Positions 7,703 to 64,000 of a DNA stretch of 64,000 nt are shown here, piece after piece. A program made the position numbers and the translations under genes. The stretch is from assembly GCF_964204645.1 (NCBI RefSeq), contig NC_134028.1, positions 19,839,245 through 19,903,244 on the forward strand. The letters are read 5' to 3'. The notes under the pieces were generated by a model. That model ran no database searches, was not told where the DNA came from, and saw nothing but the letters and a program-made list of their open reading frames with translations. The stretch's first letter is position 1; each line of letters starts with the position of its first letter. The DNA comes from Tubulanus polymorphus (taxonomy: Eukaryota > Animalia > Nemertea).

Positions 7703-8703
7703 ATGACGTCTGTTACGAATTCATCTGACGTGTCGTGCGTAAAAACTTTACCGATACGAAAAGTTTACATCGATACGTTTTACGTCCATGCGATTGTACT
7801 ATCGTTACGATCGAACGTTTGAAACGAAAATCATACTACGTATGCAAATTCGTAGCTTGTTTTGATTTATCGTTTCTCGTTTCGTTCGCGTTTTTGTACC
7901 CGATTCGGGCGTTGTACGTTTACGCGATTATGGGTGACGTCATGTTTCGTTTTTACGCGCTCAAATTCGGGGGTTGGATTTTGTTCATATTTTCATATAT
8001 GTTTCTCTGGTTAGAGACATCGAGGAATTGGTCGGTTGTTTTGCTCAGTGTTGATCGGCTAGTGGTGATTTCATTTCCGTTGCGAGCGGTGCGATTTTGG
8101 ACACAAAGAAAACTACTATCAATTATGATTTGTGTGGTTACCTTAAGCGCGTTGGCAAACTGGCATTATATCATACAAGGCTCATTCCCAGGACTTTATC
8201 GCTGGCCTTGTCTTAGATTAGATATTCGTGTTTATACCCAGTTCAGCGGTTATACACTCTTCAAATATACTGATTTTCTCACAAAACTCATCACAAATTA
8301 CACCAATTATGTTTACATGTTCATAACGTCAATATTCCCTACTTGTTTTTTGATAGTTGTCAATTTTCTGTTAATGTTTGTTTTATATCGTGCGACCACA
8401 GCTCGACGGTCTCTTCGTCGAAGTGATTCCGTCGCCCGCAACAATGTCATCGATATCCGCGCTCTCAGAAATGTCGTTGCGCTCGTCGCTTTCTTTCTAA
8501 TTTGCGAAATCCCGGCCACAATGCCGCGACTTTTTGAAATAAACGGTTTTGTAATACGCGATTATAGATTGCGAGCAATGTTTTATCAATTCGCTCTCAC
8601 TACAACGGTTTTCAATTCAGTCGGTAATTTTTTCATCCTTATTTCTACCGATGATAGATTCCGTAGTTTCACACGATGCCAGGCGTGTCGGGTAGACCGG
8701 TAG
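7703..8703 (+). pseudogene. Intronless rhodopsin-class (peptide-receptor-like) GPCR with a frameshift/deletion in TM1
   Basis: TM2-TM7 lie in ORF 7735-8703 (VACFDL, NWSVVLLSVDRLVVISFPL, FFLICEIP, FNSVGNFFILISTDDRFR). The likely N-terminus MTSVTNSSDVSC..YIDTFYVHAIVLS starts at ATG 7703 in another frame and ends at 7822. No GN motif of TM1 is present. Confidence 0.7.
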
Positions 8704-9768: not shown

Positions 9769-10624
9769 AGAGGAGCTTGTGTAAATTGTTATGCATAGCA
9801 TGTTACAGCCTGGCACGTGGGGCTGTTAAGTAGACTTCCCTGGACATGAGAATGACCGATGCCCAATATTCATTGTTACCGTCACTGCCATGGCAACTGT
9901 TTTATGTCCATATTCCAAAAAAGTGACCATATGGTCATTGGGGCTAGATTTTGGAATTCACATGATATATGTGTGGTATCTTATTGTCGGAAATTGAAGT
10001 AAACTTTACACGGTATCAGATTTTCTCGGAAAAATCTGCATTTGTTGAGATTTATTGCCATGGCGACTGCAAAATCTTTGATTTTCTCATTTTGTGTGTG
10101 TCTTTTCGGCAAATATAGTTACATATTTGATTTGCCTCACAGGTTTAAACAATTTTTCTATAACATCTTCTTCACATAATTTGGTGTATTTTGAATATAA
10201 CCTAAATTTAAATCATCCGTACGATACCAAAATATCCTCTCTTAAACACGGGAAACGAAGAGTCTGGAGTTACCATGTTTAGAAAGTTTTTTTTTATGGA
10301 AACAGAGTTCCTCTCTCAAAGTAACTTTCTCATATCAAGAATGAATCGTGTTACACTAGCACCAGTGGCAAGTGGACCTACCTAAGATAGTGACTGGAAC
10401 CAGGGAAGTGTGATCTCATCACACTTCCCTGCTGGAACCAATCAAAGACTATCGCCGTCATTGCCATGGCAGCCATTTTGTTTGCAAAAGATTGAAAAGG
10501 CATTTATATTCGTATCATTCTCTTTTCAGGCAAAATGTTTAAGTCTACTGAATAGCCCCACATGCGATGCCAAGCTGTAACATGCCATGCATAACAACCC
10601 AGAATTCAAAACATAAGCTCCTCT
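9769..10624. mobile_element. MITE with long imperfect TIRs
   Basis: AGAGGAGCTT..TTGTTATGCATAGCATGTTACAGC..GTGGGGCTGTTAAGTAGACTT is mirrored by AAGTCTACTGAATAGCCCCAC..GCTGTAACATGCCATGCATAACAA..AAGCTCCTCT. Confidence 0.7.
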
Positions 10625-34000: not shown

Positions 34001-34804
34001 AGTGATTTGGCTGCGGGTTTCAAGGAGTTAGTATAACAATACCTATTTTTCTTTACCGAATTAACCGTGTATTTACTAAGATAAATCTTTAGTGCAAAGG
34101 GGAATCGTAGGCCTAAACTAAACACGCCGAAGAGATATAGCGGAGAAAAGCTGTTATGTCGACGAGGTATCAAAATAAAAGAATATATTACTTTATTCGG
34201 CCGCGGGCCTCTAGATCAATACCATCAATACTCTATATTTCCTACAGTACATACCGATCATTGTCAAATGCACAAGGTATTTACTAAATACAAGTATATA
34301 ACACATAATCCTTTCCGTATGCTGGACTCACACTTGACATTCGGAGTAAGCGTTCGCTGTGGGGGAAAGGGATCGTTCGCTGTGTCGCTTGAAGTGTTTA
34401 TCGAGTTTGACGCGGCTTTAGGCCTACCGGTACTGAGCTTTACTGTCTCAAACAAACACAGTACAATTGTTGCGTTTATTAACGGACTCATTGGATTGAA
34501 CTTCAAAACAAAATTTACGATATTTAGGTGGGTTGTTAAATTCAATAGGCCTACGACCAATCTGTCCGGATGTTAGGCCTACGCATATACATAGGCCTAC
34601 ATAGGCTAGTAGCCTCTACTAGGTTAAGCGTTGGCTGTGGGGGAAAGGAGATCGTTCGCTGTGTCGCTTGAAGTGTTTATCGAGTTTTACGCGACCTAAA
34701 GGCTTTAGTATGGTGGCTGATAAGGGCCATGCGTGAAAAAACACGTACATGCAAATGAGGGCGACATTATTGACAAAACGACAAAACTAAAATAACGCGA
34801 CAAA

Positions 34805-36075
34805 ACAATAATTTTGGTTTTGTCGCCCGCGACAATTCATTATTTTGGTTTTATCGCCCGCGACAATTCATTAATTTGGTTTTGTCACCCACGACAAATC
34901 GATATTTTCGTTTTGTCGCCCATGACAATTCAATATTTTGGTTTTATCGCCCGCGACAATTCATTATTTTGGTTTTATCGCCCGCGACAATTTTTTTTTT
35001 GTCGCGGTTTTATCGCCCGCAACAATTCATTATTTTGGTTTTATCGCCCGCAACAATTCATTAGTTTGGTTTTGTCGCCCGCGACAATTGAAGATTTTGG
35101 TTTTTCTGCCGCGACAATTCATTTTTTGGATTTGTCGCCCGCGACAATTTAATATTTTGGTTTTATCGCCAGCGACAATTCATTATTTTGGTTTTATCGC
35201 CCGCGACAATTCATTATTTTGGTTTTATCGCCCGCGACAATTCATTAATTTGGTTTTGTCACCCGCGACAAAACAATATTTTGGTTTTGTCGTACAAGAC
35301 AATTCAATATTTTGGTTTTTCTGCCGCGACAATTCATTTTTTGGATTTGTCGCCTGCGACAATTCAATATTTTGGTTTTATCGCCCGCGACAATTCAATA
35401 TTTTGGTTTTATCGCCCGCGATAATTCATTATTTTGGTTTTATCGCCCGCGACAATTCATTATTTTGGTTTTGTCGCACAACACAATGGCGACAATTCAT
35501 TATTTTGGTTTTATCGCCCGCGACAATTTTTTTCTCTTTTTGTCGCGGTTTTATCGCCCGCGACACTTCAATATTTTGGTTTTATCGCCCGCGACAATTC
35601 ATTATTTTGGTTTTATCGCCCGGAACAATTCATTATTTTGGTTTTGTCGCACGCGACAATGGCGACAATTCAAGATTTTGGCTTTATCGCCCGCGACAAT
35701 TCATTTTTTGGATTTGGCGCCTACGACAATTCAATATTTTGGTTTTATCGCCCGCGACAATTCATTATTTTGGTTTTATCGCCCGCGACAATTTTTTTCT
35801 CTTTTTGTCGCGGTTTTATCGCCCGCGACACTTCAATATTTTGGCTTTATCGCCCGCGACAATTCATTAGTTTGGTTTTGTCGCCCGCGACAATTGAATA
35901 TTTTGGTTTTGTCGCCAGCGACAATTCATGATTTTGGTTTTATCGCCCGCGACAATTCATTTTTTGGTTTTGTCGCCCGCGACAATTCAATATTTTGGTT
36001 TTATCGCCAGCGACAATTGATTATTTTGGTTTTATCGCCCGCGACAATTAATTTTTTTGGTTTTGTCGCCCACAT
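34805..36075. repeat. ~31-bp minisatellite (TTTTGGTTTTATCGCCCGCGACAATTCATTA), about 40 units
   Basis: Head-to-tail near-identical units with recurring variant blocks. Confidence 0.96.
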
Positions 36076-51876: not shown

Positions 51877-54800
51877 TTAACTGATGATGATATTTCGTTT
51901 TTTAGATTTTTCCGACGACTTCTTCATTTCCTCCAGTTCGGCCATTACGTCTTTGCTGTCGGCTTGTTTTTTAATGTAGTTCTCCAGCCTGTCGATGATC
52001 AAATCGACTCGGTTCGAAAGCTCGCGGCACTTCTCATCCGCGCTATCTTGGGCTCCTGTAAATCGAAAACATCAAATCCACATATACCTCAGTGTAAGGA
52101 GGAAGATCAATGGATGTTGTTTGAGGTTGAAGAACAGCAGAAACTGTTTATCAAATTCAAAGGATGTTCTAATAAAAACTATGCAAGGAATCTGTGAGGG
52201 AAATGTATAAACATTCAGTTCATGAGGATAAGTTGCTTTGAAAATTAGATTATAAACTGAAATTTGTAGAATTGGTCATTATACTACTTTTGGTATAGAT
52301 AACGAGACGAGTAGTAACTATATTGGTTATCTATTAATTTGACGCACGAGATTTCGCTACTAATGCATAGAAGCTTCATCAGGTGAATGAGAATGAATGG
52401 AATACTTTTGGTATATACGTATACGAATGTTGCGTGTATTTGTTTACATTTTACGTGTATTTACTGATTTTAACCATTGGGGAATATTTCTTTCATATTT
52501 CACCATGCTTCTCGAGGAATTAAACAACCTATAGTATACGTATTTCGAAGCTAGTTCCTCGAGTGAATAATTGATTAGTGAGACTCCATATATAAATAAA
52601 ACCCACGACCGATAATCTAGGTTCTAGTCAAATTAGTTCAAGAACTATGAAACTAGTTTCGAATAAAGCCAATCTGCAAATGTACTGTAGAACTTAAATC
52701 CTGTCTTACAAACACAAACTAACAAATCCAATTTCGCAAACAGCCGCAGAACTTGAAAATGTTGGGTTTATCGTTGGATTGTTATAGTTCAATTAATGTT
52801 GATGATATGCTATAAAGATCATACCATATATCAAGCTAGCATTATGTAGATAAATGTATCCAAGAAATAAATAGATCTTAATTATTTCAACTACTTTACT
52901 CTGTATAATTTACTCTACCTGAAATATCCACAATGAATAAGTTAAAATGATTTAAATCCAGTTTACCTTCCAAATATTCCAACCGGCATTCTGTAGGGTT
53001 CCCTTCTATTCTAGTCATACCGATGGCTTTTTTGAATGATTGCATCATAAAATCCACAATTTCATACTCGTTCGCTTGTCCAGCTATGCAATCCATCGCG
53101 TACGTGTAGCCCTCCAAAATGATCGCAACCATGAAGTTAACCATCATGAAATTTACGATGATAACGAATGCCACGAACATTAACGGAGCCATCACGGGAC
53201 TGACTGCCTGCATTCGTCGGAAATTGAATTTATCTAGAATGGAGGTATACAATGAATTGAAACGTTATAAAATTGAATAATTTGGGCGTGAGAATGGTCG
53301 ATTCGGAAACCTCAAAATGGACCCCCTCCCCATCACTTAAGCGCGACGTACACGACGCGGTGAAGCACAGAAACAGGAAGCACATGTTTCCTGTGTTTCC
53401 CTGTTGTATTTCCCTTTTGTGCTTCAAGCCCACAAACGAAAACACGTTTGACCTCGGAAACATCTTTTCCCGAAACAATGTTTATCGTTTCTTGTAAACG
53501 CTAGTGATCAAGAGAAACGCCAGAAACATGTTTCTATCACCCGTTTTCCCAGTGCTGCGTTCGTTGGGCTTTGATAGAGACGGAATGGGTGGCACCCAAA
53601 TCAATGTCCTCCGGATGGAACCCTCTGAACCTATGTCCCTATAGTAGAACATCATTCAGTGAGATCCTAGTAATAACACTTACTTAACATCATGTTCAAT
53701 AATGTCTCCATACTAGCAATGAACGTTGAATATTCTCTCAAACGGACCATGAACTTCAGGTGACACAAACTAACAAATCCGAAAAACAGAACCAAGAACA
53801 CGACCATAAATCGCATTAGTGGCCAGGACAACCACTTCATCATCAAAGCCAGGGCGCAAATCCTTTTGTTAAATCGCAGTAGTTTCAGCCCTTGAAGTGT
53901 CGATAGAAATACGATCATTGCGAGTAAATAAACCGACAACTGCAAATATAGACAGATAACATTATACAAACATATGACAATCACAAACGTTACATAGTTT
54001 ATCATTTCCTCATTTCGTTAGTTGTATTCTGTGAAAATTACCTCGTCGTACAAAACGACATAGTCAAGATTTATGAATTTGGTTCTGTCCACCATCATTT
54101 CAGCCATCGCGTACGCCCCGAAGAATCTCACTATTTGCATGAATATGGCCACAAATCCCATGAGTATCACCGCAAACTCGTAAACATCCCAAAATGACTG
54201 TAAAAAAACGAACTTGAACGTTTATTGACGCCTTAAAATAACGCATATATTGCTTTTAATATTGTCGACAATAAATAATACGATATAAATCATACAATAT
54301 CAAGCATCAAGAAAGTTATATCGGATTTGAATATATCGATTAATGAATTGAATTGACTGGCAACCAGTCTAACACCGATGTATTGATGACTTAGTCCGCA
54401 TCTTCTAAAAACTAATTATTGAAATTTATCAAAAATAAAATGAGAATCATGAAATATATCTAAACAGAAATGAATTCCAAAAATCACAGTTTTAATTCTT
54501 ATTTTGCAACGCGAATATTGATGACGTTGTGCACATCGACTTTAAACAGAACGCCTTCTATAACGCAGGATGTCATTATAAACAATATTGTAACCGTTTT
54601 GAAGGCGTCAAAAGCCAGATAACGAATAGTTAGATAGTGAGTTATTCGAAAACTACGGGCCCAGGGACACCATGCCCACTTGGGAAGTGGTTTCAAATGC
54701 TCAACAATCTAACAATTCCAATATTCAACGCCCCCTGGTGACCATATACAGAATCCAATGACCTTGAAACTCACCAAAATCATAGAACATGTCAGCAGCT

Positions 54801-57566
54801 ACGATTTTGTAATTGATTGTGATAGCAAAATATGCCTCGTTACCAATTTAATATAGAAATACTAAGTCATTCTACTATTCAACGCCCCCTGGTGACCATA
54901 TTCAAAACCCAATGACCTCGAAACTCACCACAATCATAGAATATGTCACGAACTACAACTTTGCAATTGATCATGGTAACAAAATATGCCTAGGTACCAA
55001 TATAATAAGGAAATACTAAGTTATTCTACTGTTCAACGCCCCCTGGTGACCATATAGAAAAACTTATGTCCTTAAAACTCGCAACAATCTTAGATGATGT
55101 CATGCGCTACAACTTTCCAATTGATTGTGGTTACAAAATATGCATTGATACGAATATAATAAAGAAATGCTAAGATATTGTATTATTCAACGCCCCCTGG
55201 TGGCCATATACGAAATCAAATTACCTTGAAACTCACCACAATCATAGAACACGTTATGAGCTACAACTTTCTAATTGATTGTGGTAGCAAAATACGCTTA
55301 GGTATCAATATAATGTGGAAAAACTTTTTCCAACTTACGAATGAGTACTGGTGACACCAAGATGGCCGCCAATTGCGTCATAATTGGCTGATGAAAAATA
55401 CCTGTCTCAGGTATAAAACATCCCTTTCCAAAGAATACCCATCACAAATTGTAATGAGAAATGGCAAACCAGTAGGAAGCTACAGGACTCAGAATTCGGG
55501 CCAAAATTAACATTTTTGGGCACTAAAAAGGTCATAGGACGGCCATCTTGAGTCCGACCGACCCAATTTTTGTTATGTTGATGGGTCCTGGGGGGATTCA
55601 CATATATCCGAAAGATCAAGGTAATTGATCGAAGCGTCTTCAAAAATTTCCTCAAAAAGTTCAAAAATGTGTAAAAAGTGCTGATTTTGGTGAACAACAA
55701 TGGCTGCCAGTCGGCCATCTTGATTCTGACAGGGCCAGTTTTTGGGCTGAAGATGTGTCTAGGGTAGATACATGTGTAACCCAAATATCAAGACGTTACC
55801 TTGAAGCGTCTTCAAATCCTCCCAAAATAACTGGATTCCGTCTACGGACGGACGAACGGACGAACGGACGAACGGACGGACGAAGGACGGACGGACGACG
55901 GACGAAAAGTGAACGCAATAGCCCGCTGGGACTAAAGTCCCAAGTGGGCTAAAAAGAAATTCAGTCAAATCCGATGCAAAAAAATTACGTCTCCGTTCTA
56001 ATCTTCATATGTTCACACATTTTATACTTACATTAAAATATTGACGTCGACCGATTTTCCGCAGTCTCTTCGAAGCGCGCACCGCGAAGTAGATCAAGAA
56101 CCCGAGAAAAATGAATTGGAAAAAGAACATCACTGAGTTCGTCGGTGTCATTCCTTTCTCCAGGCGCATTACTGTCACTTTATACTTTGTAAACGCCCCT
56201 GAATTGAGAGCACGATTCTGACTTAAACAAATGCATCAATCGTGATATGGATTTTTTAATTGGGAATACAATTGGTTTTTTTCGATATTTGTTCATCTCA
56301 ACACGTTTTCAACGGGCTTCGTGATATATAATGGTGGCTACTACGGGCTCATACACATAGACAAAATTCGATATCTTTCAAATATGAAATAAAATATACT
56401 TATATAAAAATGCAATCAATGAATCTTGAATTTGATAGGAAAACAATATTGGAGTTTTTGTCGACAGATAACCTTGATTTACAACTGTCTATAGTCAGGA
56501 CTGTAATGTAGTCCATTGATCGGGCGCAGCCATATTGCATCAATAATTATAAGCTCCTCTATATATTCACTATGTATGTGATTACCTCCACTATTTAGGA
56601 ATTCCACGAGGAGAAACGCCACACCATACAAGCGAACGTTGTTGTTGTAAAGCAAAAACTCGATGATGATACATCTTGTATTCTTATCCAACCAGTTTCC
56701 AGCTTTAATCGTTTTTAGAGTGCGCAGAGCTTGTTTCGGCTGCGTTCCCAAATTCACTACGTAACCGCCACCGGAGTACGTGGCAAATTTCCCAGACGTA
56801 GGCGAACCCTTGAGTTTCCAGGCCGACGAGTAACCGAACCCATAATCCGGTTTATCGTTTGGATCTAGAATATCGAAATCTCTACATGTAAATTCATGAA
56901 AATATAAACAACGTCCAAATCTAAAATTGACGTCGAGAGAATTGATTTCATTCGAATCATTAATGCGGGCATTTTATACGGGGGGGGGGGGGGTTACGGC
57001 ATCCGCCATCATTTCTCGAAGGAGCGATGGAATTCACTTTCAGGCTGGAACTACGCACTATGCATACATTAATATCTTTTTTGCATATTGAATTAGTTAC
57101 TCATTTTCCAGATGGCGTGTATTCACCTGATTTATTAACGGGAATCCATCCAGCTTTGTAATTCCCTTCTTCTTGGCTAAACATACTATAGCTAGGCCGG
57201 CACACATCACCAAATAACCGATCTAATCTCGAGTTACATGCGACTAAAACGATATTTACTACTAAAATGAATGTATAAGTACGTAAAAAGTTTATTTGGA
57301 AACGAAATTAAAGCAACTGTTCTCGATTACCGATGAACATATGAGTTGTATCTTTTAGAACCAATAGCGATTTAGCCAAAACAGGAAAACTTACCAGGTT
57401 TTGTTCGTAACTGACGTAGACGTGGAACGCAGACTCTCAACGCCTGTCGATCAACGATGTAATTCTTATATTTGTACCAATCATCACCCGGGAACATATC
57501 GTACCCGAACATTCCAGGCACCAGCGATTTTTCGGCGTAATCCCAAAACTGATCGAAATTCCTCAC
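51877..57566 (-). CDS. Polycystin (PKD1-like/TRPP) channel domain, 3' part (exons 57566-57395, 57243-57127, 56864-56586, 56198-56032, 54197-54042, 53939-53684, 53233-52967, 52055-51877); upstream exons lie beyond the Polinton
   Basis: Intact spliced frame: PRLRQLRTKP, GKFATYSGGGYVVNLG, NWLDKNTRCIIIEFLLYNNNV, LKLLRFNKRI, VNFMMVNFMVAIILEGY..NEYEIVDFM, and a short coiled-coil tail CRELSNRVDLIIDRLENY. Confidence 0.9.
54650..55955 (-). mobile_element. Helentron/DINE-1-like non-autonomous element in a polycystin intron
   Basis: The minus strand starts TTTTTAGCCCACTTGGGAC..GCGGGCTATTG, then a (CGTC)n microsatellite, a core, four 154-bp tandem repeats, and ends with a CCCAAGTGGGC subterminal inverted repeat. 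Confidence 0.75.
54724..55330. repeat. Four 154-bp tandem repeats inside the Helentron-like element
   Basis: TTCAACGCCCCCTGGTG at 54724, 54878, 55032 and 55186. Confidence 0.92.
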
Positions 57567-57675
57567 CTGCAGAAACAGGCAACGAAAGTGACCGATGAAA
57601 ACGTATCATAAGAAAATAAGAAATAAGATACCCCGAAATGCTGAGAGTAGTATAGTCAGAGGGGGGTTCTGGCAC

Positions 57676-58090
57676 AGCTAACTTTTGGGCTAACTGTGCT
57701 AATGTGAGCTAACTTTGAGCTAATGTAAGCTAACTTTTGAGCTAATCTGAGCTAACTTTTGAGCTAATCTGAGCTAATGTCGGTTAACATCTGAGCAAAC
57801 TTTTGAGCTAATCTGAGCTAATGTTGGTTAACATCTGAGCTAATCTGAGCAAACTGTTGAGCTAATGTGAGCTAATATCGGTTAACATCTGAGCTAATTT
57901 GAGCTAATGTCGGTTAACATCTGAGCTAATCTGAGCTAACATTGAGCTAATGTGAGTGAATGAATGTTAATACCGAGCTAATGTGAACTAGTTATCGGGC
58001 TAATGTCTATGTGTTATATGGAGCTAATGTGGGTTAACTATTGAGTTAGGTATTGAGCTAATGTGTGTTAATGTTGTGCTGATGAGGGTT
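57676..58090. repeat. Polinton subterminal short tandem repeats (GAGCTAA-based, ~10-12 bp)
   Basis: Dozens of CTGAGCTAAT / TTTGAGCTAA / GGTTAAC units start about 30 bp inside the terminus. Confidence 0.88.
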
Positions 58091-59171
58091 AACAGCGGGT
58101 TGTTTATACTATTTCTGGTATATGAGTAAATTTCTGAAAGTATTGTGAAAGGGGGTACAGTAAAATCTGATAGAACAAAGTATATGTTATAAGTATGGTA
58201 TGATGATGTAATTATTTCGAGTGTTAATTAAACAGGGGAGACAAAACTATAAGTATAGCAAGATATTTTTTATTGAATGTGTTTGAAATGAATTCAACAG
58301 ACAGGTGTGGATGTGATGGTGAATGTAGTCGAATAACAATAGGGGCTAACATGATAGTTGGGATATGCGAACCCAGATGACCTGTTAATGAGAATACAGA
58401 ACAATAACACTCCGGTGTAATTTCGAGAGTTCCCACCGACGGTAATGGCATTTTTTCTCTTTATAATCTTCATTATGAATACTGGGTTCAATGTGATTTA
58501 TTAGGTTTTGCTTCCGAGAATACTATCATAAATGAATTTATCGTCGGACATCTGTATTGAAACTCCCTGTTCTTTTCAAAAAGTAATGTGTTCAGAAGGT
58601 ATTATCTGTTTGTTTTATTCGTTTCTGTTGATGACTGTTTGACTGAATAGATAGTAATATAGATTTTCTACTCTGATGACCATCCCGGTGGTAAACCGTG
58701 AGAAAGTTTGAATATTCTCTTAACAGGGGGGGTAAAACAGACATAGGTGGAGTGACAGTATTTAAAGAAACAATGAAGATCAATCACGTGATTTAAAGTA
58801 GACCAATGGTATGATTCTGTGGTAACTTAAAAATTACGTTGATTGGTAAATTTTAACATCCTATTGTTGATCGAACATTTAAAAATGCCGACTACCGCAG
58901 CACGGTCTTTTTCGTTCCAACGCGCCGAAGTATCCAACAACGCAGAACCACGCTATCATCATCATCATCATCATCATCGACATTATCGTCACCAAAGGAG
59001 ACTAAGGAAAGAAAACTCATTTACTAAGGTAAGCTACGTATTATTTTCCTTAATTCTACATAATTCTTTTGTTTAGATATTCTCAATGTGAAATATGTAT
59101 ACTCGTTATCGAAATTTTTGCATTGTATCGAAAAATATTTTACAATTTTTATCAATTTTTTAAGATGAAAT

Positions 59172-59639
59172 TTACATTCTAATGAAATACTTACTAACAA
59201 ATTGTTTAACATAATAATCATTATACTCGTAATCAGTTTTACTAAAACTACTGAATATCTCGGGAAAACACATACCGTGTGAGAGAAGAGTTACAAAATA
59301 TATGCAATAATATCCGCAATTCGTACTAAACAAACTTTGTACTCTAACTCGAGAATAATCCCAGTAATGACAGTGTGTATCTAAATAGTTTCTTAATATA
59401 ATATTATAGAATTGCGGTTGTTGTCCGTAACTATCTAGGAAATAACCTTGTTTATTTGCAAATATTATAAAACAAATCCAATGTTCTCCGCTCTTATCAC
59501 TATTTTGAGAGTTTACAATGAAAATACTGGGATACTCAGGAGGTTCGGGTAAACGATCAGCTGCGTAGACACCTTTAAACAATTTGTTCGCACAGGTATC
59601 TTCGCGCAAAATATTAATTAATTGATCGGTATACAACAT
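59172..59639 (-). CDS. Polinton adenain-like cysteine protease (155 aa from ATG 59639)
   Basis: FKGVYAADRLP, IVNS..SGEHWI (His), YFLDSYG (Asp), VQSLFSTNCGYYC (Gln/Cys). Confidence 0.93.
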   Translation of the reverse strand: MLYTDQLINILREDTCANKLFKGVYAADRLPEPPEYPSIFIVNSQNSDKSGEHWICFIIFANKQGYFLDSYGQQPQFYNIILRNYLDTHCHYWDYSRVRVQSLFSTNCGYYCIYFVTLLSHGMCFPEIFSSFSKTDYEYNDYYVKQFVSKYFIRM

Positions 59640-59643
59640 CTTT

Positions 59644-60963
59644 TTAAAAATCTGTGACAACAGTGCGGTCTTTTGTAATTTCCAACACTTCATCAAAGTT
59701 GGCGTATAATAGTAAATTAATATTTTCTGGTAGAGGTTTTGAAAATTCCAATTCCACGCGAAGGGAACCCTTTTTACTGATAGCCAGGTCACTGAATCCG
59801 AAATCAGGTGTCAGATCGAATGCGGTTAGGAAATATCCGTTAGCATAATCTTTTCTGGTTATTCCAATTGTCTTATCTTGATATAAAATACCGGTGCCAG
59901 TGAACAATGAGAAATATCCTTCACTCAAGTCTTTCGACTCGAAATTTATTGCCGACGCTTCAACTTGCGACCCATTGATGGACACCGCAATTCTAGCGAT
60001 ATCATAGTGTTTAAAGTCGAACGGGTTTTTATCGTAACTTCCACTCAGCGATTCGTCCGAGCAGAATCCGATAATTATATTCCTCGGTAAATTTCCAATT
60101 ATCAGATTATCTCTTATAACACTGCGTACTCCACGTGGTATATTCACCGGAAAAATGCTTGTTTTTACAAAATGGTATTTGGCATTACTAGTAGCCAATG
60201 CTTTCTCATGCGCTAACTGAACTGACGGGCTTAGTTGTACTCGTCGCACATTTAATGTAGCGTTTTCAATTTTCACTTTGAACTTTACGTCTGGATTCGG
60301 GGACATTAAACAAAATGCATCCTTACTTCTGATTAACTTAACTTTAACCGTTACATTCGAGAGAAGTAGTTTATCTAGTCCGAACGCATCGCTGTGTAAT
60401 CGAAGTTGCGCTTTTACGAGATTGTTCGGCTTTTTCAGTAAATCATAACGTTCTTTGAGACCCGAGTTACAATTCGCGCTTCTAGGATCTGTATCGTTCA
60501 TACGCCCGGCTTCGTCTTTATATATCATAGCACTTTCCATCCATCCCGGTTTCGTAGATGATTGACAAAATATCAAGTTCTCAATAGCGGCTCTAATCGG
60601 GTGTAAGTCCATTCCATTACTAATTAATTTGTCGTTGAATCGTACCTCGACGTCACTGAATAGTGACTGAGCGTAATTAATAAGGGTAGCTACGGGATCA
60701 TCTGCTTTGTCATTGTTCATCGGACTGCCATCGCCCTTTACAATTTTAAACGTTGCATCTAACCACGTGTGGTTTAAATCTAGATAATGTTGTGAGTTAC
60801 CGGTTATAAGAAAATCGATATTTCCGCTATCCGTAATTGTAGCTAACGGTTGATATTTAGCATAATGTGCGGACTCCATAGTGATATTAGTCATCGGCAG
60901 TGAAAAGATGTCCAATTCACTCTTGAGTGCAGGGTGCGAGTCTTTGTGTACTTTCAAACCCAT
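59644..60963 (-). CDS. Polinton major capsid protein (double jelly-roll)
   Basis: 439 aa with KSELDIFSLP.T, YLDLNHT, SLFSDVEV.FN, LLSNVTVKVKLIR, GSYDKNPFDFKHYD, FDLTPD and GSLRVELEF motifs. Confidence 0.92.
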   Translation of the reverse strand: MGLKVHKDSHPALKSELDIFSLPMTNITMESAHYAKYQPLATITDSGNIDFLITGNSQHYLDLNHTWLDATFKIVKGDGSPMNNDKADDPVATLINYAQSLFSDVEVRFNDKLISNGMDLHPIRAAIENLIFCQSSTKPGWMESAMIYKDEAGRMNDTDPRSANCNSGLKERYDLLKKPNNLVKAQLRLHSDAFGLDKLLLSNVTVKVKLIRSKDAFCLMSPNPDVKFKVKIENATLNVRRVQLSPSVQLAHEKALATSNAKYHFVKTSIFPVNIPRGVRSVIRDNLIIGNLPRNIIIGFCSDESLSGSYDKNPFDFKHYDIARIAVSINGSQVEASAINFESKDLSEGYFSLFTGTGILYQDKTIGITRKDYANGYFLTAFDLTPDFGFSDLAISKKGSLRVELEFSKPLPENINLLLYANFDEVLEITKDRTVVTDF

Positions 60964-61026
60964 GTTATATCAGTGTTGATGTTGGCGATAACAATGAAGA
61001 TGTTAACAATGATAACGATCAGTTAA

Positions 61027-61419
61027 TTAATATGCTTCCAGGCTTTCGATTGTTCCACGTTGACGTTTCACCCGACGTCTATTCGACTTCGATTTTACTT
61101 TACGTTTTCTCTGATTATTCGGGGCTTTTAATACATTTCGAACGGCTGTTTTACCGTTATTCAATAACGATTCTCCTAGATCTCTTCCACCAATGACGTC
61201 ACCTATTGTGTTGACACCGGCTTTAACTATATGTGGTGCTGCTTTCTTTGCAATTGTCTTAAACAAAGGGATCGCTCCCCTGAATAATCCTCCCAGAATA
61301 GATCCGATTCCTGCTCCTTTTTGTATCGGTCTACCGTGATAGAAATCATTCCCGCCACCCGCCTGCCGTAAATAATAATTACAGCAAGCGTCTTGATCTA
61401 TGATACATTCGGTTTTCAT
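61027..61419 (-). CDS. Polinton small virion/core protein (protease-cleaved, amphipathic helix, basic tail)
   Basis: YYLRQAGGG..IQKGAGIGSILGGLFRGAIPLFK, followed by RKRKVKSKSNRRRVKRQR. Lies between the minor and major capsid genes. Confidence 0.85.
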   Translation of the reverse strand: MKTECIIDQDACCNYYLRQAGGGNDFYHGRPIQKGAGIGSILGGLFRGAIPLFKTIAKKAAPHIVKAGVNTIGDVIGGRDLGESLLNNGKTAVRNVLKAPNNQRKRKVKSKSNRRRVKRQRGTIESLEAY

Positions 61420-62228
61420 AGTAACAACTTTCGTCTAAAATGTAACACGAGGGATACTTTGCCCCTTTTAAAGATGGGCGGAGTACCACTGTCCTTAAAC
61501 ATATAGATTTCAATAACGTCCAGTCGATTACTCCTGAGCGGAAGATAATAAGGTCGTCTAAATTCACGATCTATAACTGTTTGATTTATATCGTTTACAC
61601 CTACAATCCTTAACAAAGGTGCGCTATCGTGTCCAACTTGTTGATGTTGAATTAACTCTGAATAGATTAAGATGTTATGATTATCGGCCATAAGGTCGAC
61701 CGGTCTAGACGCTATGACCTCGACGTAGCCGAAGTTATCGGATGAACTTGCTTTTCCTATGATTTTAGTTTCGGTAATATCATCACTAAAAATGTCGGCG
61801 TCGACTACATGCATCGAAGGGAAGCCCAACACCCAGGCTAATTCCTTCCTGAACTTAATTTTCGCGTTAGCGGATAATCTAATCGAAACTCGTTGGCTTA
61901 TCTCATTATACATTAGTTGTATTTTATTCGCTGCCGGTGATCGCGTTATAACCGAGTTCACATGTTCTATCAATGTTTCGATATTTCTATACACACCGCC
62001 TGGCACGCTATACGCGTCACTCCATTGTCCATCACCAGAGTCCACATAAAATTCTCCAGTAATTACGTTGTCGAATTCGCAATTGAAATTTATGTGAACT
62101 AACGCGACTTCCCAATTACCTTCTAGGTTAATCGTCCCTCTCAATTTAACTTTAAACTTTTCTTGAGAGTTTCCTGGAAATTCATCCACGCTTCCATCGC
62201 TCAATAATGTTAGATAAAAGTCATGCAT
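61416..62228 (-). CDS. Polinton minor capsid (penton-like) protein
   Basis: FYLTLLSDGS..FPGN..FKVKL..I.LEGNWEVAL N-terminus and IYSELIQHQQVG..APLLRIV..YYLPL..LVLHFRR C-terminus. Confidence 0.9.
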   Translation of the reverse strand: MHDFYLTLLSDGSVDEFPGNSQEKFKVKLRGTINLEGNWEVALVHINFNCEFDNVITGEFYVDSGDGQWSDAYSVPGGVYRNIETLIEHVNSVITRSPAANKIQLMYNEISQRVSIRLSANAKIKFRKELAWVLGFPSMHVVDADIFSDDITETKIIGKASSSDNFGYVEVIASRPVDLMADNHNILIYSELIQHQQVGHDSAPLLRIVGVNDINQTVIDREFRRPYYLPLRSNRLDVIEIYMFKDSGTPPIFKRGKVSLVLHFRRKLLL

Positions 62229-63315
62229 TCTTCTTCTTTAGTTCTCGTGCCGGAATCCACGAATTGAATTTCGTCGGGTATCCCAACCACTTCACGAGCA
62301 ACTCGCGGTTTCTTCCTCGACCGCGTCTTCTTATAATCTTCTCCACTCGGTAATCATCGTCGTTTTTAATTACTTTTTGTAATTCGTGACGATAGAATTG
62401 TCCCTGAACCTGCTCACCCATTTGATCTATAACGTTATATGTCGGTGGGTTGTGCGGGATCTGTTTTGAAACCGAGAATATTTCGTGCGACCATCCGGGT
62501 AAATAACCCTTGTCGAAATCTTTCTTATATCTTGTGATTCTGACGGTATCCCCAATGGAAAACTTGTACTGTTTGTTCATAAGAGACTCTTTTCCGTATA
62601 GGTTTTCCCACACCAACTTCTCATTATTTTCACTAACTTGAGACGGGTTCATTTTTATCGACCTATGATACGAATTGTTGTAGGCATTTATAATCTTAGG
62701 AAGAACATCTATATAGGTTTTCGTCTTGTACGCGGTCATATAGCGGAATAATCTTCCCTTTAACGTTCTGATGAATCGCTCGACAATACTACATTTCACT
62801 GTATCCTCGCTCGTAAAGTGATGAATGTTATACTTCTTTGTTATCTTACTAAAATATGCATTCAAAAATTCTTTGCCCTTATCACTTTGAACTTTTTTCA
62901 TACGACTTTTAATCGCTATACCTTCGAATGCGCTACTAACTTCTCCACCATTTTTCGACTTTAGGGGTATGGCGTAAGCGAATTTAGAAAAAACGTCGAT
63001 CGAAACCAGTAGATATTTAATTCCTTTATTATACTTAGATATATTCGATAAATCACACAAATCGATTTGATGCTGTTGATTGATACCGGATACTATTGTT
63101 CTATTCCTCTTGAAACGCACGCGAGTAGGACGATGAAGCGTATATGCCTCTTGCGATTTCAGAAAGTCTCTAATAACGTCTATACCAATTTCATTTCCGG
63201 ACAGCTTCGCGGTGCGATGTAATGCATTCAAACCACCGAATGCGCTTGGGTTTTCTGGGTTGTAGTACAGGTTGTTCAGTATCTTTTTCAAGTCCGAGGT
63301 CAGGCGAGTCGACAT
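62221..63315 (-). CDS. Polinton retroviral-like (DDE) integrase with C-terminal chromodomain
   Basis: YTLHRP, QIDLCD, IDVFSKFA, VQSDKGKEF, IVERFIRTLK, YNNSYHRSIKM.P; chromodomain YRVEKII..LVKWLGYP..NSWIP. Confidence 0.96.
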   Translation of the reverse strand: MSTRLTSDLKKILNNLYYNPENPSAFGGLNALHRTAKLSGNEIGIDVIRDFLKSQEAYTLHRPTRVRFKRNRTIVSGINQQHQIDLCDLSNISKYNKGIKYLLVSIDVFSKFAYAIPLKSKNGGEVSSAFEGIAIKSRMKKVQSDKGKEFLNAYFSKITKKYNIHHFTSEDTVKCSIVERFIRTLKGRLFRYMTAYKTKTYIDVLPKIINAYNNSYHRSIKMNPSQVSENNEKLVWENLYGKESLMNKQYKFSIGDTVRITRYKKDFDKGYLPGWSHEIFSVSKQIPHNPPTYNVIDQMGEQVQGQFYRHELQKVIKNDDDYRVEKIIRRRGRGRNRELLVKWLGYPTKFNSWIPARELKKKNA

Positions 63316-63425
63316 CGTCTTTCACTTTTGACTGTTGCACACAACACGAAATGTTGAATTTTTTACAATTAATGTTAATGAGCGATTGCGGTAAACAATC
63401 AGACTTCATCATTTCGTTATCCCGA

Positions 63426-63962
63426 TTATTCACACATATGCATATTGAACAACACATGCGGCAACACCGAAATCATCTGCTTTAAAGATTTACACCCGCT
63501 AATAATCACACATCCCTTATGTTGTATTATAAATGTAACATTTCCACAGCGAGATATGAGGCTGGGGGTGATCTCCGGATCATATCGTCCACCTAATAAC
63601 GTGTGTAGTTGGGATAAGTTAACTTTAATTCCCGTTCTCGCAACACCTGTCATTGTTTGAATTTTAAATTCTGTCAATCTAACGGCGGCAGTGGTATTAA
63701 TCTTTTGTATCAATCTAGCAAATCGTCGCACACTGGTATAACTCTCGCTGGATGACTTTGCTCCGTTACATACTATTCTCCCGCTTGCGAATAATAGACA
63801 CGTGCCCCTGATGCGCTTATTCCTAAGAATTAATGCGTTAAATTTACGAGGGTTGTACACTACGTTTGACATTGTCCTAGACAACTCCTCTAGATTGAGC
63901 TTACAATTAAGATTTGCAGTCGCTACTACATTAACAACGTCGATCATTTCTGATGTTACCAT
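63426..63962 (-). CDS. Polinton-borne divergent TATA-binding protein (TBP core fold) homolog
   Basis: Intronless 178 aa. Repeat 1: NVVATANLNCKLNL..YNPRKFNALILR..TCLLFASGRIVCNGAKS..RRFARLIQK. Repeat 2: FKIQTMTG..YDPEITPSL..VIISGCKS. Confidence 0.88.
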   Translation of the reverse strand: MVTSEMIDVVNVVATANLNCKLNLEELSRTMSNVVYNPRKFNALILRNKRIRGTCLLFASGRIVCNGAKSSSESYTSVRRFARLIQKINTTAAVRLTEFKIQTMTGVARTGIKVNLSQLHTLLGGRYDPEITPSLISRCGNVTFIIQHKGCVIISGCKSLKQMISVLPHVLFNMHMCE

Positions 63963-64000
63963 TACGAGAACTAGATACTAAATGAACTTGGATAAAATGA

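Follow-up and report, generated by a model that had tools for sequence, protein, structure and literature searches.

The locus described here raises the question of why a mobile element should carry a gene for a TBP, and of what the product does there. At the end of the window, by which we mean the whole 64,000-nt stretch of DNA that was analysed, six consecutive ORFs on the minus strand encode a TBP-like protein, an integrase, proteins of 270, 130 and 439 amino acids, and a protease (Table 1). A sequence-only reading had taken the first of these for a Polinton-borne TBP that has lost half of its DNA-intercalating residues, acting either as a factor for non-TATA promoters of the element or as a decoy.

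Table 1. Features of the element at the end of the window, and the grounds for each
Feature	Position (nt)	Strand	Grounds
Candidate 6-nt target-site duplication	57640..57645	+	Empty-site records; second copy would fall past the window
Element terminus (starts AGTAGT), likely terminal inverted repeat of ~410 nt, with 10/22-nt tandem array	57646..58054	+	Loose ends
Adenain-type cysteine protease	59172..59639	-	Peptidase_C5 E 0.0011, below curated cut-off
Major capsid protein, double-jelly-roll-like, 439 aa	59644..60963	-	ESM Atlas; L056/L057 likeness
YTCRTK site TTCATT	60993..60998	-	35 nt before major capsid ATG
130-aa ORF, PZ-like or virion accessory candidate	61027..61419	-	Gly-rich amphipathic middle, basic tail
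Penton (minor-capsid) candidate, 270 aa	61416..62228	-	Position; N-terminal likeness to post-integrase ORF in 3 related loci
YTCRTK site CTCGTG	61446..61451	-	32 nt before 130-aa ORF, inside penton-candidate frame
Integrase, retroviral-type, C-terminal chromodomain, 364 aa	62221..63315	-	Pfam rve 3e-9, Chromo 1e-8
YTCRTK site TTCGTG	62258..62263	-	35 nt before penton-candidate ATG, inside integrase frame
YTCRTK site TTCGTG	63345..63350	-	35 nt before integrase ATG, non-coding DNA
TBP-like gene, core-only, element-borne	63426..63962	-	Open ORF, Pfam TBP, predicted fold, relatives
YTCRTK site TTCATT	63981..63986	-	39 nt before likely TBP ATG; same motif, offset in diverged copy

The row of genes carries the hallmarks of a Polinton/Maverick, i.e., a retroviral-type integrase together with a double-jelly-roll-like capsid and an adenain-type protease, the last with a match below cut-off. 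The protease ORF opens at 59693, and a start at 59639 was assumed. The 439-aa protein has an ESM Atlas feature score of 0.98 to clusters in which 14-30% of the members carry PF21738, and aligns over its full length with the corresponding ORF of two related loci (L056/L057; 27% identity, E 1e-54); neither it nor the protease gave a useful PDB or PHROG match. The label of the putative penton stands beside a negative Pfam and PHROG comparison, and the 130-aa ORF, presumably PZ-like or a virion accessory protein, likewise gave nothing above the cut-off in either. The Beta-class maps in the text of Fig. S2 of PMC8502044 are labelled in a matching order: integrase, penton, hexon, adenain.

The left border of the insertion is directly visible in sequencing data. 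Four runs (X1, X2, X3 and X5, representing at most three samples from two studies, with X1 possibly the source of the window itself) were aligned on 56500-64000. Records of the empty site depart from the window sequence after 57645 in all four runs, and in 46 reads of X5 the sequence before 57646 is mixed (agreement 0.51). At 58054 a further loose end, again in all four, is likely the inner border of the terminal repeat. Because neither an empty-site flank nor a second terminus is present in the 64-kb window, where the other inner border was not found either, the insertion reaches beyond 64000 and takes in the TBP gene; a single X1 contig matches 62020-64000 with four differences. A Polinton insertion thus begins at 57646 and continues beyond the window end with the TBP gene inside it. 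The gene is cargo of the element, and the earlier observation that no terminus separates it from the integrase block extends to the whole window.

Several features near the terminus are recorded for completeness. X1, X2 and X5 also have loose ends at 57684, which suggests further subfamilies of the element with no more than the initial 39 nt of the terminus (57646-57684) in common, and X1 and X5 show a form of the element that skips 58555-58783. Facing inward at 58780-59076 on the plus strand, i.e., oriented opposite to the virion genes, are an E-box, two CCAAT-type sites, a short ORF with a run of His and a GT splice-donor-like site. Outside the element, 3.6 kb away from where it is inserted, polycystin (PKD) channel exons lie on the minus strand at 52896-54005 (Pfam PKD_channel, 7.5e-8), so the element may sit in or beside a polycystin gene. 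A 257-aa ORF at 7930-8703 (plus strand) matches rhodopsin-family GPCRs. Between 16000 and 46400, several families of interspersed repeats with 20/40-nt tandem arrays occur in either orientation, and 34796-36071 is a tandem array of a 31-nt unit; the repeat families are probably non-autonomous transposons.

The TBP gene itself is open and intron-free, and encodes 178 amino acids from its first ATG. It matches PF00352 (TBP) in two stretches with an E-value of 1.4e-33 (115 bits), and the two repeats, together with the fold of the model, place it in that fold family. The sequence-only reading was right to call it an intact, core-only TBP homolog co-oriented with the integrase, before whose ATG at 63315 it ends by 110 nt, but the full extent of the ORF is less well taken. 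Translation probably starts at the second ATG (63947), giving 173 amino acids, because the nearest relative, P0009, is 173 amino acids long and begins there, and because a diverged copy from the same species, which parts from the window sequence just 5' of 63957, has no ATG where the first one stands. An AlphaFold model built with a 26-row alignment has a pLDDT of 96.3 (36.8 for a single-sequence fold) and superimposes on TBP-DNA structures with a TM score of 0.93 and an rmsd of 1.1 Å, although cellular TBP structures are only ~30-33% identical to the window protein. Given this pLDDT and TM score, the whole saddle is predicted to be intact, with repeat 2 altered and not collapsed. The repeat is indeed shorter, as had been said, by about four residues, but the gap falls in a hairpin and is common to most proteins of the family described below.

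Where does such a protein come from? In a search over 1.84 billion representative proteins the best 150 of 4106 matches were listed, and later profile searches added further rows. Among the matches listed is a set of core-only proteins of 162-190 amino acids, with P0009 the closest at 53% identity. A word-index search with the single window protein returned seven distant matches and missed P0009; a search with a subclade alignment gave, among the matches listed, none above 38% identity over most of its length. From 401 rows, 307 distinct cores remained for FastTree after short and duplicate rows were dropped, and the window protein lies within a group of 111 rows with a support of 0.976. In an IQ-TREE analysis of 67 rows, partly drawn at random from the FastTree set, 37 family rows split from 30 other TBPs with support 100/99, and the window protein joins P0009 (100/97) and P0014 (98/93); branches are long and the root serves for drawing only. 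On these trees the window TBP belongs to a family of ~170-aa TBPs that branches apart from cellular TBP. TRF2 proteins do not occur among the 401 rows, and the lone match with a TRF2 motif (P0067) groups with ordinary TBPs.

The linkage of TBP to an integrase and a capsid recurs in other DNA. A metagenome scan kept 80 of 126 loci, 14 of which hold family members (L052-L064 and L114), and 131 loci were searched with six window proteins at a cut-off of E 1e-4. An integrase lies downstream on the same strand in 11 of the 14 family loci, whereas element proteins match in none of the 117 other loci at that cut-off. Two of the remaining sequences (L059, L062) end before the place of an integrase, and a twelfth locus, L064, carries genes upstream of TBP for an A32-type ATPase and, by a weak match, for a polymerase. 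Three loci (L055-L057) also hold a capsid and two (L056, L064) a packaging ATPase. These counts include near-duplicates (L056/L057) and five family loci with one assembly prefix. Among viral contigs no family member was found, nor anything with the TBP, capsid or A2 queries, and the A3 and A5 queries gave only matches of 21-31% identity; the genome contigs gave nothing with the A4 query.

In six loci (L056, L057, L058, L059, L060 and L062) a small ORF follows TBP. That of L056 (1321-1806) is PC4, transcriptional coactivator p15 (PF02229, 1.5e-17); that of L058 has no PC4 match, and the others were called PC4-like by eye. The pairing suggests that TBP and PC4 form a two-gene transcription module in one group of relatives. 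The window element has no PC4 gene at the place after TBP. L056:5016-6172 has, in addition, two zinc-finger-like starts, both preceded by YATAAGAR (at 42 and 48 nt), of which the second is joined to the A32 packaging ATPase.

What has become of the DNA-binding face can be read from a comparison of the 111 family rows with 131 eukaryote-type rows. Residue labels follow the yeast protein. Repeat 1 keeps both phenylalanines, F41 and F58, along with the other DNA contacts N11, V13, R47, T54, L56 and V64, while repeat 2 has T132 and Q147 at the Phe positions and T103 in place of its central Asn, so that the canonical set of four intercalating Phe and two central Asn is incomplete. The intercalating role of the two Phe pairs of TBP is described in PMC3142196. 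The sequence-only reading had the residues right, one pair kept and one lost, but took the loss for the defining change. It is a lineage trait: in the family both repeat-2 positions are aromatic in 76 of 111 rows, one is lost in 30 and both in only 5, compared with all four aromatics kept in 130 of 131 eukaryote-type rows. Three of the five are the window protein, P0009 and a near-copy of the latter, P0159; the other two, P0055 and P0204, underwent the double loss independently of the window lineage. Gln147 is common to the window protein and P0009. What marks the family as a whole, to judge by these counts, is change at the other DNA-facing positions of repeat 2: the Asn is Thr in 102 of 111 rows and Asn in none, the following Val is Ser or Thr in 110, and two further positions are mostly polar. 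In one subclade (the P0168-P0179 group; L058, L059, L061 and L062), 10 of the 111 rows have a His at the first repeat-2 Phe position, a change that we take to be shared with TRF2.

The surfaces facing partner proteins are kept. The acidic loop of repeat 2 is present in the window protein (D128, E130, I131), and its second acidic position is Glu in 106 and Asp in 5 rows, i.e., acidic in all 111. This loop is the putative TFIIB contact. Arg is found at two positions of helix 2 in 107 and 109 of the 111 rows.

The rewritten repeat is also under constraint. All four runs contain the second, diverged copy, which is colinear with the window copy and, in the X1 contig, is shorter by 6 nt in the stretch that separates two aligned pieces. 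Its longest alignment, 63481-63584, covers the rewritten repeat-2 strands and has 19 differences, of which 17 were listed, 11 synonymous and 6 non-synonymous. The resulting dN/dS is 0.10, or 0.13 if both remaining differences change the residue (P 0.0002-0.0006), a value that errs on the low side, since the alignment took in segments of 80% likeness or more. Codon 132 has a silent change only among the differences listed, and codon 147 is unchanged in X1-X3. The segment is thus under purifying selection, against the neutral evolution that would have spoken for a chance copy. Changes among near-identical alleles, on the other side, number 4 non-synonymous against 2 synonymous, and X5 has a lesion in either copy: an insertion near 63634-63637 shifts the frame of the near one, and codon 147 of the diverged one is a stop. 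Because X5 also has frameshifting indels in the integrase and the capsid, we conclude that whole copies decay together, like old insertions.

If the protein binds promoters, the genes downstream of it should be preceded by a common signal, and in the relatives the integrase and penton genes mostly are. A count over 13 family loci (all but L057) gives 29 copies of YATAAGAR on the gene strand and 2 on the opposite one, against 5.6 ± 2.4 in shuffled sequences (maximum 15 in 200 runs). Of 10 integrase ATGs, 8 have the box 30-42 nt ahead of them, as do all 5 penton ATGs, but it precedes none of the TBP (0/10), PC4-like (0/5) or PZ-like (0/4) ATGs, nor the major capsid ATG of two relatives (0/2); for the PZ-like and capsid genes this holds even at 28-50 nt. 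In 5 of the 13 sites the TAA of the box is the stop codon of the upstream gene, and in 8 it is not. All box-bearing loci belong to a subclade that excludes the window protein, five of them with one assembly prefix. Since the box stands 30-42 nt from the ATG, a leader of only 0-12 nt would be left if it works at -30. The promoter of PDB entry 1qn5 presumably reads TATAAGAG; according to its title, that entry is a crystal structure of host TBP with a TATA variant carrying G at -26, so the family box might be readable by host TBP as well.

Most relatives keep the Phe pair and sit with a TATA-like box rather than the non-TATA promoters that had been proposed. In the window element itself YATAAGAR precedes none of the six genes, with the best matrix scores at background level, and TATA variants rich in A ahead of the PZ-like and protease genes score no higher than background.

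A different motif, YTCRTK, is found 32-39 nt before five of the six ATGs of the window element and is absent before the protease. Against a null obtained by searching 455,680 degenerate 6-mers on random element windows, its empirical P is 0.003 for offsets of 30-42 nt and 0.02 for 28-50 nt, rising to 0.055 and 0.2 without the TBP gene; for TCGTGK before the integrase, penton and 130-aa ORF only, P is 0.005. Because the motif was picked by eye before testing and several gene subsets were run, we treat it as a lead. It is not enriched on the gene strand (10 vs 10), two of the five sites are in coding DNA, and one site stands before the TBP gene itself, where the relatives have no box. Exact 4-7-mers shared at -60 to -20 of five genes are not significant (P 0.16-0.80), and a scan for bacterial-type promoters, which do not apply to this element, gave nothing above shuffles. 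The TCATT noted earlier before the TBP and capsid genes is remarkable for its position, but not for its frequency, with 15 occurrences on the gene strand and 12 on the opposite one over 57646-64000.

We think it probable that the TBP-fold product is the element's own promoter factor, recruiting host TFIIB and Pol II. Host factors would switch on the TBP gene first; the TBP-like protein would then activate the integrase and virion genes by binding upstream of them, bringing in TFIIB and Pol II through its kept acidic loop. The main family would read YATAAGAR. In the window lineage the Phe pair that would wedge the 5' end of a TATA box is gone and so is the family box, and YTCRTK, at the same offset, could be the site that the protein now binds, or else the initiator of a promoter without a TATA box. 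The inference made from the letters thus gains from the loop and from the family box before downstream genes, though the box of the relatives is TATA-like. A stronger version, in which the lineage is a natural re-programming of a TBP and the loss of the Phe pair went with a switch from YATAAGAR to a G-containing box, TCGTGK, at an unchanged offset before the integrase, penton and next gene, is a tentative possibility that we hold to be rather doubtful.

Alternatively, the protein might bind TFIIB, TFIIA, NC2 or Mot1 without productive DNA binding and so damp host transcription. Over the 111 rows the partner-facing residues are better kept than the DNA-facing ones, as a decoy would have it, and the window lineage lacks both repeat-2 Phe and the family box. 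However, the repeat-1 DNA contacts persist, and the altered face is itself constrained, with Gln147 shared with P0009 and a dN/dS of about 0.1 over the segment; the position of yeast E93, which we assume to contact TFIIA, is kept in only 7 of 111 rows. Damping of host transcription would leave unexplained the non-canonical box before the integrase and penton genes of the relatives. It explains less than a promoter factor does, and we consider it unlikely.

It is also improbable that the motifs are initiators or start sites read by the host and that the protein has another DNA job, e.g., binding the terminal repeats or a tethered, TRF2-like role. YTCRTK is compatible with the animal initiator consensus, and leaders of 30-36 nt are of ordinary length. 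Among the relatives TCAKT is found before 5 of 10 TBP genes and 3 of 5 PC4 genes, compared with a background of 7%, and the relatives' box contains ATAAG, the late start site of baculoviruses. Yet YATAAGAR resembles a TATA box, stands at a TATA-like distance and is missing before TBP, and the near-invariant acidic loop points to assembly of a pre-initiation complex. Finally, we hold it highly improbable that a retrocopy of host TBP, or a functionless passenger in decay, is what the gene amounts to: the missing introns, the X5 frameshift and stop codon and the 4 non-synonymous against 2 synonymous changes among near-identical alleles would fit, but the low identity to cellular TBP structures, the separate clade (from tree rows without TRF2), the conserved integrase linkage and the purifying selection between copies argue against it, and the X5 lesions extend to the integrase and capsid.

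Compared with cellular TBP (PF00352; 1tgh, 1cdw and 1ytb), the promoter factor that we favour has the same two-repeat saddle (TM 0.91-0.93) and shares the repeat-1 Phe pair, the acidic loop and the basic residues of helix 2. It differs in its identity of only ~31%, in the lack of an N-terminal tail and of introns, in its location in a mobile element, and in the changed Asn, Val and both Phe positions of repeat 2. In TRF2 it is the Phe pair of repeat 1 that is gone, with the last Phe retained. This is the opposite of the pattern in the window protein, and TRF2 is a host gene with introns. TRF2/TBPL1 is described in PMC4180977 as a TBP paralogue with changed TATA-binding residues and no TATA binding.

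Giant viruses bring their own RNA polymerase. The TBP-like proteins of Nucleocytoviricota gave 47 BFVD matches with E up to 0.001 but only 8-19% identity, and the lone giant-virus row in the tree, L001, falls outside the Polinton family, which answers the earlier suggestion of a tree including giant-virus TBPs with that single row. L001 itself (9986-10546) is a core-only TBP close to cellular TBP, beside a major capsid gene on a giant-virus-type contig.

The closest working model, by analogy, would be the TBP mimics of herpesviruses, KSHV ORF24, EBV BcRF1 and HCMV UL87 (TATT late box), which are likewise virus-encoded TBP-fold factors using host Pol II, at a modified TATA box ~30 bp before the start (PMC6541308). 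The relatives reproduce this pattern of a modified box that is absent before the factor gene (13/15 vs 0/10), whereas the window element does not (0/6). The window protein stands outside that family: the mimics bind Pol II directly in a six-member complex, while it is a bare core of 173-178 amino acids with no herpesvirus-type Pol II-binding domain, clear sequence likeness to TBP, a TFIIB-type loop and no extra domain or partner complex seen.

In Polinton-like elements a figure legend attaches the label 'TBP' to a MELD virus, an element with an adintovirus-like PolB (Starrett et al., 2021, PMC8502044; 10.1101/697771). There it is a bare label in a section on non-animal datasets, with no function, residues or promoter box given, and neither the accessory-gene section nor the animal-map text of Fig. 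S2 of that paper names a TBP. Our literature search, mostly outside the subscription journals, found no account of what a Polinton TBP does or of a promoter box for it. Viral TBP mimics as such are known from herpesviruses; the novelty lies in the minimal form, in the class of element and in the loss of both Phe together with the missing box. What this locus adds is the loss of both repeat-2 Phe under selection, the absence of the family box and a candidate replacement motif.

The finding bears on how Polintons time gene expression without an RNA polymerase of their own. The family varies positions that are fixed in cellular TBP and so offers natural tests of the residues that set DNA specificity, and a one-protein TBP switch with its own box can be tested with a small protein and short DNA probes. 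If the re-programming is true, the lineage would hold an orthogonal TBP-promoter pair, by which a small integrating virus runs host Pol II on signals that host TBP ignores.
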